Origin: Atractiella rhizophila
Taxonomy: Eukaryota
Length of the DNA stretch: 64,000 nt
Direction of reading: 5' to 3'
NCBI GenBank assembly: GCA_021432655.1
Contig: MU271236.1
Location: forward strand, 1-64,000
Position numbers and translations under genes: made by a program
In this document: in pieces, positions 35,038 through 49,667 of the stretch
Position numbering within the stretch: the first letter of the stretch is position 1
Layout: every line of letters starts with the position of its first letter
Notes under the pieces: model-generated
Told to the model about the DNA's origin: nothing
Seen by the model: only the letters and a program-made list of their open reading frames with translations
Databases searched by the model: none

Positions 35038-38000
35038 ATGTCCGCGAATTCCGTCAAAGTGTTCAAAATTCCTGAGAATATTAAGAAAACGAATCCGCTC
35101 GGACTACGGATCCTTTCTATCGACAACGGAGGCGTCGGTACTTTCTCAGCTCCTTACATGCTCGAACCCATCATGCGTCAAGCCGCACATCTTCTCAACG
35201 TCCCTGAGAATGAAGAGCTTCGACCTTGCGATGTCTTCGATCTCATTTGTGGGACATCGACTGGCGGGTGGATCGCACTTATGCTCGGCAGGCTGGGGAT
35301 GACAGTACGTCAGTGCATTGCAGCGTACGAAGAGATCGCGCGAGACGGCTTTCTAGAAGAGGATTCGGACCCCAGTGGCGAGTACTTGTTCTCAGCGAAG
35401 AAGCTCGAAGAGACGTTGATATCCATCATCCAGCGACACACCCCCCCCCCAGAAGATCCCACGAAGCCCGTTCCTATGAAGGACCCTTCTCCGCAGGATA
35501 GGTGCAGGACGTTTGTCCTCTCTAGCTATCAAGCCAGCGTGGTTGTTTCCACGGAGATGCGCACCTACGACATTCATCATGCTGGATCTGCCTCTCGCTC
35601 CGCTTCCCCATGTTTCGTCTGGCAAGCCGCAAGGGCTACGTCTGCCCGTCCTCCTTTCTTTCCTCATATCAGTGAGGATTCCACCAACTACGTCCAGCTG
35701 GGTGGCAACAACCCTGCTACAGCAGCTCTTGACGAGGCCAAGCGAATCTGGGGGCCCAATAGTGAGATTGCTTGTCTTGTGTCTCTCGGTCCGGGGGTTG
35801 CAAGGGCTATCAAGTTGGGCTGTATTCGGGATGATATTGACGAAGCGCTGAAAGCGATAGTCGCGGATTGCTCAAACGTTGCGAAGGCAGTGAAGGTGAA
35901 GATGCAAGACCGTGAGATGGATCATTGTTATCATCGCTTCTCGGTTGATACATTTGGAGACTTCAGGTGGGAGGAATGGGAGCGAAAGGAGGACGTTGTG
36001 GGCTGCACGAGGGCATACATGGAGGCAATGAATCATGAAGTTTCCTCTGCGGCCAAGTCGCTCGTGCGAGGTATTCTCCATGTTGCGTGATTGAAGGCGG
36101 CATGCTGACTTGCACTTGGTTAGGCTGTAAACAACGCATTGCTGTGCCCAGAAAGCTTCCGTTGCCTCAAACAGGAGATTGTTATGGAAGACATGACGAA
36201 GTTGCGACGGCAATCAAGTGCATCATCACCGACAAAAAACATCTTGCCATCATTGGTGGCGCTGGCAATGGGAAGTCTACTGTGGCGCGACAGGTCCTGC
36301 ATGCGAAGGAAGTCAAAGATGCATTCACGACCATTGCGGATGGTAAGGAGGAAGACTTTCGGTTCTGGGCTCGATGCGATGCTTTCTCTACATTTTCTTC
36401 ACTCGCCAGAGAGCTTTGCAGGCACGTCTTTGCAATAGCCCCTGGACCTGGTGAAAGTGAGCTTGGTGCTGTGGCTCGATATTTCCACAGTCACAAGTGT
36501 CTCCTTATCTTGGACAATTTAGAAACGACAGCAGAGCGTGACACGGAGCACCTGCAGCCATTCTTTCAAACCATTCTTTCTTCCAACAATACGCTGGGGT
36601 CCATTCTCATCGTGGCACATCGAGGACATCAAATCTATCGCGTGAACGTCACAGATGTGAAATTTCGAGAGTTGACAATTGGCGGCCTTAGCGACACTGC
36701 TTGGCTCAAGCTGTTCAAGCACCTGTACACGGGAAAAGAGGATTGTGCGGAACAACTACTCAAAACCATTTTCGCCAAGCTGGATCATCACACTTTGTCA
36801 ATCAAGCTGTTTGTTCTTCGCGCCAATGCAGAGTCGACGAAACGTATTTCCACTCTTTTAGAGGAGTGGGAGGCAAAGAAGATAATGACACTGTGGAACA
36901 AGGACAGCGAGGAGACTCCTACGCTAGCAACGTCGATAGCTTTTTCACTCCGTTCACCTCTCCTTCAAATGCATCAAGACTTAAGCACTTTTATTCTTGC
37001 CGTTCTATCTTGGACACCCGACGGACTTTTGAACAATGATATTGTGGCAATTACGGAAAAGTCCTGCCTGCCTGATTTGGAGCAGTCTTACGTGGTCATG
37101 ACCTCGATTTTGTCGACTGGGCTCGCCGAAAACATGGAGGATGCCTTGTCAAACGTGATACGACTACGCATGCTTTCACCGATTCGCGAATACATCAACC
37201 ACTCAGTGTGTCAATGTAATCCGCCTTTTAAAACCACTGTACCATCCCTTAAACCCCTAACGGAACGTCTGATGGATAAAGCTCGGGAAAATAGGCGACG
37301 ATTTGAAGTGGACGGTGTACGGATAGGGTTGTTGTGTTTCCGCAATGACCATGCAAACCTTGAATATGTGCTTCTGGCAGGTTTTGAACATCTGCATGAT
37401 TCAACAACGTTGGTCCATTTTGTTGTGGAAATCTGGCACTTTCAGTATCTCCAGCACCATCTCTCAATCAAACTGTTGCAGCAGGCTGTATCAACCACGA
37501 AATCCAATAGTTGTCAAATGAATTTCAAAGCCGAATTGAAAATGGCAATGGGTCTTGCATTTCAACAGCAGGGAATTCCTCAAACAGCCTTAAAACATTT
37601 TGAGGAGGCGAAGGAGCTATATCAGGTGGTAGAAGGTAGGCGGGGGCAAGCCCACTGCATTCGCAGCATTGGGGAGATCGAGCAGCATCGGGATCGGATG
37701 GAGGAAGCGCTGTGGCGTTTCGAGGAGGCGAAGAAGCTGTACCAGGTGGTAGAATTTCAGCAGGGGCAAGCACACTGCATTCGCAGCATCGGGGAGATTG
37801 AGCATCATCGTGGTCAGATGGAGGAAGCACTGGGGCGTTTCGAGGAGGCGAAGGAGCTGTACCAGGTGGTAGAAGATCGGCAGATCTGAGCTGTGAGCGC
37901 ACAGCCCTAGCATGCATTTCACAGCATCGGGGAAGATCAAGCTGCATCGGGGTCAGATGGAGGAAGCGCTCAGACGTTTCAAGGAGGCGAAGGAGCTGTA

Positions 38001-38556
38001 CCAGGTGGTAGAAGATCGGCAGGGGCAAGCCCACTGCATTCACAGCATCGGGGAGATCGAGCAGTGTCGAGGTCGGATGGATGACGCGCTCAGCCGTTTC
38101 GAGGAGGCGAAGGAGCTGTACCAGGTGGTAGAAGATCGGCAGGGGCAAGCCAACTGCATTCACTGCATCGGGGAGATCGAGCATCATCGTGGTCAGATGG
38201 ATGAAGCGCTCAGCCGTTTCGAGGAGGCGAAAGAGCTGTACCTGCTGGCTCAAGACCTAGGCGGTCAACTTAACTGTCTTTTCAATATCAGCGAGCTTTA
38301 CAGTGGGGACTCCCAGAGCATGTTCAAAGCAATCGAGTTTCTTGCGGAAGCAGTCAATTTGAGCAAAGCAGCTAGCGGCTACTACGAAGCTCGGAGTAGA
38401 TGGAGGCTGGCCCGACTCCTCTTCCTATCGTGCCAATACGACCTCGCCAGGGAGGAAATCATTCAGGCGCGTCAGCTCTTCACAGATTGTTTTGCCACTT
38501 CCGACGTGGACCAGTGTAACAATGTGCTCCTCATGCTTGGCGGACCAAAAGATTGA
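35038..38556 (+). CDS. NLR-like protein: patatin - STAND/NB-ARC-like NTPase - TPR repeats (copy 1; disrupted in the TPR array near 37885-37920)
   Basis: Patatin motifs LRILSIDNGG, FDLICGTSTGG and WQAARATSA. A 53-nt intron (36071-36123) joins in frame to Walker A GGAGNGKST, Walker B LLILDNLE and RLRMLSPIREY, followed by 40-aa TPR units. Confidence 0.9.
37590..38250 (+). repeat. TPR array, 120-nt units with high internal conservation (~5-6 units)
   Basis: GAGGAGGCGAAGGAGCTGTACCAGGTGGTAGAA..CACTGCATT..GGGGAGAT recurs every 120 nt. Confidence 0.95.
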
Positions 38557-48100: not shown

Positions 48101-49667
48101 GGTTGTAGAAGATCAACAGGCGCAAGCCCACTGCATTCGCAGCATGGGGGAGATCGAACAGCGTGAGGGTCAGATGGAGGAAGCACTGAGACGTTTCGAG
48201 GAGGCAAAGGAGTTGTACGATGTGATAGAAGATCAGCTGGGGCAAGCCCACTGCATTCACAGCATGGGGGAGATTGAACAGCACCGGGGTCGGATGGAAG
48301 AAGCGCTGAGACTTTTCAAGGCGGCGAAGAAGCTGTACCAGGTGGTAGAATTTCAGCAGGGGCAAGCACACTGCATTCACAGCATGGGGGAGATTCAACA
48401 GTCGTGGTCGGATGGAGCAAGCGCTGGGATGTTTCCAGGAGGCGAAGGAGCTGTACCAGGAGGTAGAATATCAACAGGGGAAAGCCCACTGCATTCGTAG
48501 CATGGGGGTTATCGGTCGTGGTCGGATGGAGCAAGCGCTGGGATGTTTCCAGGAGGCGAAGGAGCTGTACCAGGAGGTAGAATATCAACAGGGGAAAGCC
48601 CACTGCATTCGTAGCATGGGGGTTATCGAGCAGCATCGAGGGCAGATGAAAAAAGCGGTGAGACTCTTCGAGGAGGCAATGGAGCTGTACCTGGCGGTAG
48701 AAGATCGGCAGGGGCAAGCACACTGTATTTACAGCATCGGGAAGATCAAGCAGCATCGCGGTCAGATGGGGGAAGCGCTGAGATGTTTCAAGGAGGCAAA
48801 GGAGCTGTACCAGGTGGTAGAAGATCAACAGGGGAAAGCCTACTGCATTCGCAGCATGGGGGAGATCGAACAATGTAAGGGTCAGATGGAGGAAGCGCTG
48901 AGATGTTTCAAGGAGGCAAAGGAGCTGTTCCAGGTGGTAGAAGATCAACAGGGGCAAGCCCACTGCATTCGCAGCGTGGGGGAGATCGAACAATGTCATG
49001 GTCGGATGGAGGAAGCACTGAGACGTTTTGAGGAGGCAAAGGAGCTGTACCAGGTGGTAGAAGATCAACAGGCGCAAGCCCACTGCATTCGCAGCATGGG
49101 GGAGGTCGAACAGCGTCGTGAGCGCAAGCCCACTGCATTCGCAGCATGGGGGAGGTCGAACAGCGTCGTGGTCACATGGAGGAAGCACTGAAATGTTTCG
49201 AGGAGGCAAAGGAGCTCTACCTGCTGGATCAAGACTTAGGATGTCAACTTATTTGTCTTTTCAATATAAGTGCGGTTTACACTGGAGACTCCCAGTCCAA
49301 AAGTATGTTCAAAGCAATCGCGGTACTTGAGGAAGCAGTCAATTTAAGCAAAGCAGCTGGCGGCTATTGCGAGGCTCGGAGCAGAGACAGGCTGGCTCAA
49401 CTCCTCTTCCAAGCATCCCAATACCCCGTCGCGCGAGAGGAAGTTGGTCGCGCCCGTCATCTTTACGCCGCCTGTTTTGCCACTTCCGATGTACATAATT
49501 GTGACAATCTGCTGCTGAAGATTGGGCAAGCGGAAACGAGGCGTCGGTGGAAATGGTTTTGGTACTGTCCCTTCCCTCAATGTCTTGTACATGCTGACAT
49601 CCTTGGCAGGATTGCAACATTGTGCATAGGAATGTTGTCTTTTATCATAAACAAATGGAGGACATAA
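45154..49667 (+). CDS. NLR-like protein: patatin - STAND NTPase - TPR - C-terminal hydrophobic tail (copy 2; frameshifts in the TPR array at ~48400 and ~49121)
   Basis: Same motifs as copy 1, with intron 46187-46239, ~12 TPR units and a terminal 48-nt intron (49562-49609). Confidence 0.9.
47710..49225 (+). repeat. TPR array, 120-nt units (~12 units plus partial duplications)
   Basis: A(H/Y)CI(R/H/Q/Y) recurs at ~120-nt spacing from ~47767 to ~49078, with internal 114-nt and 50-nt duplications. Confidence 0.95.

Follow-up and report, generated by a model that had tools for sequence, protein, structure and literature searches.

We report a pair of tandemly duplicated genes, gene A (35038-38687) and gene B (45154-49667), on the forward strand of a 64,000-nucleotide stretch of contig MU271236.1 (assembly GCA_021432655.1), which we refer to as the window. 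We suggest, with a probability of about 0.6 that includes the mechanism proposed below, that the two genes belong to a family of NOD-like receptors (NLRs) of the Atractiellomycetes. In this family, a patatin head would be joined to an NB-ARC STAND ATPase, an array of tetratricopeptide repeats (TPRs) and a hydrophobic tail, and both members described here have broken frames in the present assembly. Within the searches made, the family was found only in the source organism and in Atractiella rhizophila (Atractiellomycetes, Basidiomycota). The window itself is eukaryotic, with a G+C content of about 48% and short GT..AG introns. The initial annotation had taken the host to be a probable basidiomycete, and this agrees with the NAD synthase open reading frame (ORF) of the window, which is 84% identical to that of Atractiella rhizophila and 59-64% identical to those of the other listed fungi, nearly all of which are basidiomycetes. 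From these values we take the organism to be a basidiomycete that is a near neighbour of A. rhizophila and distinct from it.

By analogy with characterised NLRs, the TPR array would hold the ATPase in a closed, ADP-type state, from which a ligand or a perturbed guardee would release it. Nucleotide exchange would then permit ATP-dependent oligomerisation, and this would cluster the patatin heads at a membrane, by analogy with patatin effectors that are activated by oligomerisation. The clustered heads could cause membrane damage or produce a lipid signal, and the outcome would be regulated cell death.

Architecture of the two genes

Two paralogues with a patatin domain, a P-loop NTPase and a TPR array had been proposed at these coordinates, and this is borne out by Pfam and by the ORF positions. 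Pfam finds Patatin, a STAND-type NTPase and TPR_12 in both genes. Patatin (PF01734) lies above its cut-off in each (E = 7.1e-12 in gene A and 3.5e-15 in gene B), and the TPR_12 matches have E values down to 3.4e-38. The motifs quoted for the NTPase are also present in both genes, with the P-loop GGAGNGKST at 36255-36281 and 46371-46397 and the Walker B string LLILDN at 36501-36518 and 46617-46634. Genes A and B share with fungal NLRs a head from the effector set (Patatin), an NTPase with Walker A and Walker B motifs, and C-terminal repeats that are similar to each other. A single uninterrupted frame through all three modules was found in neither gene as assembled. Beyond the initial annotation, our analysis adds a 53-nucleotide (nt) intron in each gene, the frame breaks in both arrays, and a wider duplication that takes in the flanking genes.

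Gene A begins with the ATG at 35038. Its first exon (35038-36070) encodes the patatin-like domain, with DNGGVGTF at 35116-35145, the nucleophile elbow CGTSTGG at 35248-35268, and a YVQLGGNNP stretch that ends at 35715, in which the catalytic Asp motif is absent. Intron 1 (36071-36123; 53 nt, GTATTC...CTGAC...TTAG, phase 1) is taken to be spliced by analogy with the corresponding intron of gene B. Exon 2 (36124-38584) encodes the NB-ARC-type STAND NTPase, including LDHHTLSI (36780-36803) at the GxPLA position; the TPR array and a cap at the C-terminus come after it. Gene B has the same layout, from the ATG at 45154 to the stop codon at 49665-49667. Exon 1 (45154-46186) encodes the patatin-like domain, with DNGGVGTF at 45232-45261, CGTSTGG at 45364-45384 and a YIQLSANNP stretch ending at 45831; intron 1 (46187-46239) is 53 nt long with GT..AG borders, and exon 2 (46240-49561) carries the NB-ARC-type NTPase, the TPR array and the cap.

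Class and fold of the NTPase

The Pfam scores of the NTPase are marginal. NACHT (PF05729) reaches 28.4 bits in gene A and 34.2 bits in gene B, with a further score of 35.3 bits, all above the cut-off of 26.7 and all limited to the core from the P-loop to Walker B. NB-ARC (PF00931) stays below its cut-off of 23.5, with 19.5 bits in gene A and 16.8 bits in gene B. The AlphaFold2 (AF2) model of the domain is of high confidence, with a predicted local distance difference test score (pLDDT) of 89.3 and a predicted template modelling score of 0.89. It matches resting NRC2 (Z 24.1, 327 residues aligned, root-mean-square deviation (rmsd) 3.3), Apaf-1 (Z 23.8, 415 aligned), the NB-ARC domain of NRC1 (Z 23.6), PH0952 (Z 23.4) and MalT (Z 21.4). 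No NACHT chain is among the best 50 structural matches, and in Foldseek NLRP14, NOD2 and NLRP3 appear from rank 27 on. Because the best structural matches are NRC2, Apaf-1, NRC1, PH0952 and MalT (Z 21-24), the model places the NTPase in the STAND class with a predicted NB-ARC-type fold, despite the marginal NACHT score. The STAND assignment of the initial annotation therefore holds.

The relatives of the domain give a similar picture. In an alignment of 40 NTPase relatives, Pfam finds NB-ARC in 25, nSTAND1 in 18 and NACHT in 12, and the heads attached to them include SIR2_2 (7) and TIR_2 (2). A profile built from the 40 relatives matches AfsR at 1e-25 (profile positions 161-860, which include the TPR region) and, within the NTPase region, ZAR1 at 8e-14. 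In this alignment LDHHTLSI occupies the position of LD..PLAI in the relatives. A search of the PDB with the single NTPase sequence found no more than the P-loop of ABC transporters (best E 0.023). None of the STAND or Avs-type models of PADLOC matched the NTPase, the matches there being to TPR models only.

A patatin head without the textbook aspartate

The head of the protein is modelled as a complete patatin fold (AF2, pLDDT 82.5). It matches potato patatin (1oxw) with Z 32.6 over 298 aligned residues (rmsd 3.0), CapE and CapV with Z 29-32, and iPLA2beta with Z 30.2, and the phospholipase effector model of PADLOC matches it at 1.7e-23. The patatin search gave 724 matches at E 1e-3 or better, of which the best 120 were inspected. 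Among these, the closest relatives are six A. rhizophila proteins with 40-57% identity, followed by a Mycena protein at 33% and then by many ascomycete patatin-NB-ARC-TPR proteins at about 30-35%.

The active site of the head departs from that of its relatives at two places. The nucleophile is retained: a regular expression finds the GxSxG elbow in 119 of the 120 relatives, both window genes have GTSTGG, and this elbow is invariant. The Asp motif (F/Y)(I/V)D(G/A)(G/A) is kept in 114 of the 120 (111 by strict regular expression and 3 by inspection), and the six without it are exactly the six Atractiella proteins; genes A and B lack it as well. At this site the window and Atractiella proteins are shortened by two residues (YV--QLGGNNP), and in the HMMER alignments to iPLA2beta and CapV the DGG of these enzymes stands opposite TGY or a gap in the window protein. 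The second departure is the oxyanion stretch, which reads DNGG(V/I)(G/C/A)(T/A)F in the window and Atractiella proteins versus DGGG(I/V)RG in the others, so that the oxyanion Arg is absent. The Ser-Asp dyad together with the oxyanion hole (GGGxR/KG) of patatin-like phospholipases (PF01734) was not found in genes A and B, there being no DG(A/G) before NNP.

Since the whole clade lacks both the Asp motif and the oxyanion Arg, the chemistry of the head would appear to be either non-canonical or lost. An alternative acid residue is possible, and a conserved Asp that might take this part lies a few residues upstream: the window genes have it in EDST, five of the six Atractiella proteins in (I/L)Dx(T/M), and the sixth in DNND. 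The confidence of the model is lower near the missing Asp (pLDDT 64-74 at residues 201-220).

Family members and the lineage of the NTPase-TPR module

The best matches to the NTPase and TPR region are all A. rhizophila proteins, with 37-39% identity. An exhaustive search of representative sequences with the NTPase gave 929 matches at E 1e-3, of which only 6 reach E 1e-30, and the close family is therefore tiny. We regard the A. rhizophila proteins annotated as 'FabD/lysophospholipase-like' and 'TPR-like' (P0001-P0003 and P0046-P0050) as true relatives. They have in common with the window genes the patatin variant (DNGG, no Asp motif), the 40-residue TPR units, and the NTPase motifs GNGKST, LLxLDN, LDHHPLSI and RLRMLAPIR. 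They are only 37-57% identical to the window genes, and most of the entries are partial models. In one of them, P0001, the TPR array is followed by a BAG domain (PF02179), which is unusual as a C-terminal extension of an NLR. In metagenomes, an exact 23-mer from the duplicated unit gave no match, and none of the 157 pattern matches from a protein-guided scan was confirmed.

The initial annotation had called for a phylogeny against PLP-1/PaPlp1. Our maximum likelihood (ML) tree of NTPase domains contains 74 sampled rows: the 2 window genes, 6 Atractiella-type relatives, 22 of 61 other patatin hits, 30 of 140 representatives and 14 of 30 NTPase-TPR hits. The window genes and the six relatives (3 A. 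rhizophila proteins and 3 representatives) form a clade with 100% support, and this clade is nested in a group of non-patatin NB-ARC-TPR proteins supported at 98%. The NTPases of the 22 other patatin hits, nearly all of them ascomycete, form their own clade (100%) next to SARP/AfsR-type proteins, and branches of 98% support separate them from the window NTPase. A constraint that unites the NTPases of all patatin NLRs is 20.2 log-likelihood units worse and is not rejected by the approximately unbiased (AU) test (p-AU 0.135; 41 rows, LG+G4). The two groups thus stand apart in the ML tree, and a single clade is still compatible with the data. BLASTP agrees in direction with the free tree: the NTPase-TPR part matches P0004, a protein without patatin, at 4e-13 over 379 residues (25% identity), and a patatin NLR of Triangularia (Sordariales), P0076, at E 0.028 over 127 residues in the P-loop region. 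Independent assembly of the patatin/NB-ARC/TPR fusion is, on these trees and alignments, likely but unproven.

Constraint and transcription

Before the arrays, the products of genes A and B are 81% identical over 835 aligned residues. The ratio of nonsynonymous to synonymous divergence (dN/dS) over these 835 codons is 0.22 (dN 0.106, dS 0.48), and there is no stop or frameshift among them in either copy. These data indicate that the upstream 2.5 kb of each gene has been under purifying selection. For this reason we read the copies as having been functional until recently or as still functional; gene A appears the likelier of the two to be truly broken.

The divergence is not even along the genes. 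The fraction of differing third positions is 0.10-0.30 in codons 1-600 and 0.40-0.55 in codons 601-835. A comparison of 35038-37597 with 45154-47719 gives a dS of about 0.3 for the patatin and nucleotide-binding parts and of about 1.0 for the winged-helix/linker part. Because the divergence is mosaic, low to codon 600 and higher beyond, it suggests gene conversion of the 5' 1.8 kb. Mutation of the type caused by repeat-induced point mutation was considered as a source of the divergence and rejected, since there are 223 transitions versus 173 transversions and no stops.

Public sequencing runs were available as contigs only, which were placed on the window at a likeness of at least 90%; the contigs come from runs X1, X2, X3 and X6 (3 contigs) and are a mixture of paralogues and strains, and runs X4-X12 share at most 0.11 of words. 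One contig of run X3 joins 46186 to 46240, which is exactly intron 1 of gene B (53 nt, GT..AG), with 149 nt on its shorter side. The same run has further joints of intron size at 41187/41243 (GT..AG) and at 39320/39395 (CT..AC, also in X6). As several such GT..AG and CT..AC joints occur, run X3 resembles RNA data; either gene B itself or a copy with a likeness of at least 90% is thus transcribed and spliced.

The duplicated block

Genes A and B lie in a head-to-tail duplication of about 10.5 kb, in which self-BLAST aligns 29384-39708 with 39935-50728. In unit 1 (29384-39708), gene A is flanked by a Methyltransf_32 gene and, on the minus strand, by a 3' remnant of a PALP gene that is truncated and frame-broken. 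In unit 2 (39935-50728), gene B is flanked by a Methyltransf_32 gene and by the 3' portion of a complete PALP gene. The latter, which encodes a pyridoxal phosphate-dependent enzyme, is on the minus strand and extends past the end of the unit to about 51180. Identity between the units is 89% in the Methyltransf_32 gene, 83% in the NLR and 77-79% in the flanks. The PALP fragment of unit 1 (38690-39708, minus strand) is the 3' half only and is spread over three frames. Because unit 1 holds such a truncated piece and the PALP gene of unit 2 is complete, the sequence pattern is that of an old and real tandem duplication.

We also considered that genes A and B could be two very divergent haplotypes that the assembler placed side by side, their 19% protein divergence then being allelic. 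The head-to-tail layout of the block is what such an artefact would give, and other near-identical tandem duplications in the window do resemble uncollapsed haplotypes. However, the units diverge by 11-23% in DNA, as against 0.2-0.6% for those other duplications, and the truncation and frame breaks of the PALP piece are as expected of an old, true duplication. The left end of the unit also recurs in additional, partial copies at 27618-29776. Positions 39709 and 39732, which lie in the junction region, are covered by contigs of three runs, and these may bridge the junction. We therefore consider a haplotype artefact very improbable.

The block has several further features. The CT..AC joint at 39320/39395, which corresponds to a 74-nt GT..AG intron on the minus strand, lies in the PALP fragment and is present in contigs of runs X3 and X6; this suggests that the fragment of unit 1 is both transcribed and spliced. 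Three partial copies exist of the left end of the unit, which lies upstream of the methyltransferase gene (27618-28655, 28742-29776 and 39935-40337; 81-90% identity), from which it follows that the locus was rearranged more than once. Directly upstream of the start codon of gene B there is a 512-nt tandem duplication (44003-44514 / 44516-45027, 97.5%), and its sequence is present as a single copy upstream of gene A, from 34402 onwards.

The C-terminal tail

The 3' ends of the two genes are alike: a 48-nt intron is conserved in both, and the exon behind it encodes a hydrophobic stretch of 15-16 residues, KWRT and a stop. In gene A the last intron is at 38585-38632 (GTACGT...CTGAC...CACAG) and the tail exon at 38633-38687, where the best 15-residue Kyte-Doolittle mean is 2.99. 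In gene B the intron is at 49562-49609 (GTACTG...CTGAC...GGCAG; in frame and open if retained) and the tail exon at 49610-49667, with a best 15-residue mean of 2.31. The tail resembles a tail anchor and may act as one. It was not seen in any C-terminus of an Atractiella relative that we inspected, most of these entries being partial.

For gene A this 3' end depends on a single nucleotide. All contigs of runs X1, X2 and X3 that cover the site have an extra G behind 38538, in a run of G, which is absent from the window; the window therefore has at least one 1-nt discrepancy. With this G, the C-terminus of gene A continues as in gene B. Without it, the open frame stops at 38554-38556, before the last intron, and the frame is shortened by 49 codons (28 before the last intron, 3 in the intron and 18 in the tail exon).

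Repeat arrays and frame breaks

Both arrays are built of 120-nt (40-residue) units. Tandem Repeats Finder reports 5.2 copies with 79% matches in gene A (37598-38242) and 11.7 copies with 83% matches in gene B (47720-49118). Delimited by unit, array A (37599-38337) has units of 120, 120, 139, 120 and 120 nt and a diverged terminal unit. Array B (47715-49316) has five units of 120 nt, then units of 118 and 114 nt, four of 120 nt, one of 170 nt and a terminal unit.

In gene A the frame is lost in the 139-nt unit (37839-37977), where it passes from 0 to 1. The excess of 19 nt is distributed as separate small insertions over at least three sites, with substitutions in addition, and the unit contains an in-frame TGA and TAG. 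As assembled, the reading ends at the TGA at 37887-37889, giving a product of 932 codons; the frame downstream of the break is open for 219 codons and is consensus-like. In gene B the frame passes from 0 to 1 through the 2-nt deficit of the 118-nt unit, which coincides with the left edge, at 48401, of two perfect 114-nt copies (48401-48628). It returns from 1 to 0 through a 50-nt repeat (49072-49170; 1.98 copies without mismatch, with a 49-nt exact match at offset 50) within the 170-nt unit. The reading of gene B as assembled ends at the TAG at 48498-48500, giving a product of 1097 codons. None of the listed contigs covers 37887, 48401 or 49072-49170, and they therefore hold nothing that contradicts the assembly at these places.

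The multi-lesion unit of array A looks real. The duplications in array B look recent or artefactual, because they are perfect and lie in a window with other tandem duplications of 99.4-99.8% identity. These are a head-to-tail duplication of 1993 nt (59039-61031 / 61032-63022, 99.4%), which spans SAC3/GANP-like ORFs, and one of 470 nt (9509-9978 / 9979-10448, 99.8%). Both are either very recent or else uncollapsed haplotypes or overlaps in the assembly, and they affect the trust that can be placed in the perfect duplications inside array B.

The breaks can be explained in two ways other than the one we prefer. First, both copies could be dead pseudogenes, relics of birth and death, whose open upstream frames reflect recent inactivation or gene conversion. 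The breaks in both arrays, above all the unit at 37839-37977 with its several independent lesions and two stops, would fit this, as would the decay of the PALP fragment that adjoins gene A within the duplicated block; the mosaic divergence (third positions 0.10-0.30 versus 0.40-0.55) is compatible with gene conversion. On the other hand, 2.5 kb of each copy is free of lesions and has a dN/dS of 0.22, the 219-codon frame past the break in gene A is still open and consensus-like, and a spliced contig exists for gene B, whose lesions are perfect duplications that may be very recent or artefactual. Death of both copies seems to us possible, though doubtful.

Second, the breaks could be errors of assembly or consensus in tandem arrays, both genes being intact in the organism. 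The extra G behind 38538 would be one such case, since contigs of three runs restore the C-terminus of gene A to the form of gene B. In array B, the exact 49-nt overlap at offset 50 and the 2-nt deficit at the edge of a perfect duplication both resemble badly merged joins, and the two lesions of the gene add up to a multiple of three; the near-perfect duplications of 470 and 1993 nt point in the same direction. In gene A, however, a 19-nt excess over at least three sites with substitutions is atypical for a consensus error. As an account of both genes, we hold this to be conceivable rather than probable. The reading that we prefer remains that of an NLR pair under past or present constraint whose frames are broken as assembled.

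Several points weigh against this reading. Both TPR arrays are frame-broken as assembled. An intron that would rescue gene A was sought and rejected: none of the 52 frame-restoring GT..AG pairs has a convincing donor or branch site, the donors being ordinary coding sequence in every unit and a CTRAY branch site being absent. The variation among TPR units is without a clear signature of diversifying selection (ratio of nonsynonymous to synonymous polymorphism (pN/pS) 0.43), and a pN/pS of 0.78 at TPR sites that were chosen for being variable, a biased choice, gives it no support. The splice evidence is one contig from a run of unknown library type, and it could come from a close paralogue or allele. 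Finally, without its Asp the patatin head may be inactive, which we consider because, according to a review, cell death by PLP-1 requires patatin activity.

Elsewhere in the window, an open frame of 887 codons at 10315-12975 (plus strand) has no Pfam match. In its translation, a long repeat rich in Ser, Gly and Asp (GDGKGDSSS-like) precedes a Thr/Ser-rich region, and the C-terminal part contains Cys; it resembles a protein that is secreted or part of the wall.

Significance

Fungal NLRs are numerous; to our knowledge, almost none from basidiomycetes have been studied, and none from Pucciniomycotina. A full-text literature search on Atractiella and 'NOD-like receptor' found nothing relevant. 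The architecture itself has already been catalogued. According to Dyrka et al. 2014, the partner of Patatin is nearly always NB-ARC, TPRs come after NB-ARC in most cases, internal conservation is high in about 21% of TPR arrays, and patatin NLRs number about 1.7 per species. Genes A and B represent an NLR type already known from fungi in a form specific to their lineage, and the value of the locus is incremental for that reason. New features are the family itself, which is lineage-specific and counts at least 8 A. rhizophila proteins in addition to genes A and B, a patatin site that departs from the canonical one, TPR units of 40 residues, a hydrophobic tail and, in the ML tree, a different lineage of the NTPase-TPR module.

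A more specific proposal can be made tentatively, and we would give it rather less than even odds by a wide measure. It is that of an NLR clade specific to Atractiellomycetes whose head, without the dyad Asp and the oxyanion Arg and yet under purifying selection (dN/dS 0.22), may be either a phospholipase with a relocated acid or a non-catalytic pseudo-enzyme that acts on membranes or in signalling. In this proposal, the NB-ARC-TPR part would have been recruited independently of the ascomycete PLP-1 lineage, and the C-terminal tail would anchor the protein to membranes. The locus is a compact test case for three questions: whether a patatin head without the textbook Asp is still an executioner, whether the patatin/NB-ARC/TPR combination was assembled more than once, and how tandem duplication, gene conversion and repeat slippage make and destroy receptor genes.

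Comparison with known systems

The initial annotation had compared the pair with PLP-1 of Neurospora crassa and PaPlp1 (HET-Z1) of Podospora anserina and had inferred a locus of non-self recognition. Receptors of such a locus would guard SEC-9, a t-SNARE, and kill when non-self cells fuse. In the known PLP-1/HET-Z1 systems the partner gene, SEC-9 (SNAP-25-like), is as a rule linked, and membership would call for such a linked, polymorphic SEC-9. The architectural part of the comparison stands. According to reviews, PLP-1 consists of patatin, NB-ARC and TPR, an order identical to that of the window genes, its cell death depends on patatin activity and on the P-loop, and it recognises SEC-9. Like the NLRs of this type, the window genes have an NB-ARC-type STAND ATPase with intact P-loop and Walker B, and their patatin domain is 30-35% identical to that of ascomycete patatin-NB-ARC-TPR proteins, through which, rather than through the PLP-1 and PaPlp1 sequences themselves, the comparison was made. 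A single clade of all patatin-NLR NTPases is also not rejected (AU p 0.135).

The part concerning SEC-9 is not supported. Pfam found no SNARE family in 81 of the 102 window ORFs of at least 110 amino acids (all but the 21 that overlap the NLR genes) or in 136 of the 159 flanking ORFs of 55-109 amino acids (all but the 23 within the methyltransferase copies), and reading the unassigned ORFs of the window by eye revealed none; these scans cover the window only, and short exons and the sensitivity of Pfam for Sec9 were not controlled. Unlike the PLP-1 type, the window NTPase-TPR module falls in another ML sub-lineage, among non-patatin NB-ARC-TPR proteins and 98% branches away from the 22 patatin-hit NTPases, although the AU test is not decisive; its BLASTP match to the Sordariales patatin NLR (E 0.028) is confined to the P-loop region, and it is closer to P0004. 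The catalytically competent head that is characteristic of PLP-1/HET-Z1 NLRs was not found in genes A and B as judged from their sequences, which have neither Asp motif nor oxyanion Arg. The TPR units also differ, with 40 residues versus 42 in most fungal NLR TPR motifs (Dyrka et al. 2014). Taken together, membership of genes A and B in a PLP-1/SEC-9 system is not supported, and we consider an allorecognition locus of this kind unlikely.

Outside the family, the closest NTPase-TPR modules are those of non-patatin NB-ARC-TPR STAND proteins such as P0004, which combines a metallophosphoesterase with NTPase and TPR. P0004 and the window genes both have LP..GDC.GR, RLRMLAPIRE and 40-residue units, and the solved AfsR (profile match 1e-25) and PH0952 (Z 23.4) also resemble the window module. 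These non-patatin proteins differ from the window genes in their N-terminal effectors, which include SIR2_2, TIR_2 and metallophosphoesterase.

For the head, the nearest known systems are CapV and CapE of the cyclic oligonucleotide-based antiphage signalling system (CBASS), together with potato patatin. All have the complete patatin fold of the window head (Z 29-33), and the phospholipase effector models of PADLOC match it. Several PDB entries of CapV and CapE among the structural matches show filaments or tetramers; this fits activation by assembly and the clustering of the heads in the proposed mechanism. CapV, CapE and potato patatin have the Ser-Asp dyad; in the window protein, TGY or a gap stands opposite the DGG motif. 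CapV and CapE are stand-alone enzymes activated by cyclic nucleotides, whereas the patatin heads of genes A and B are fused to an NTPase.

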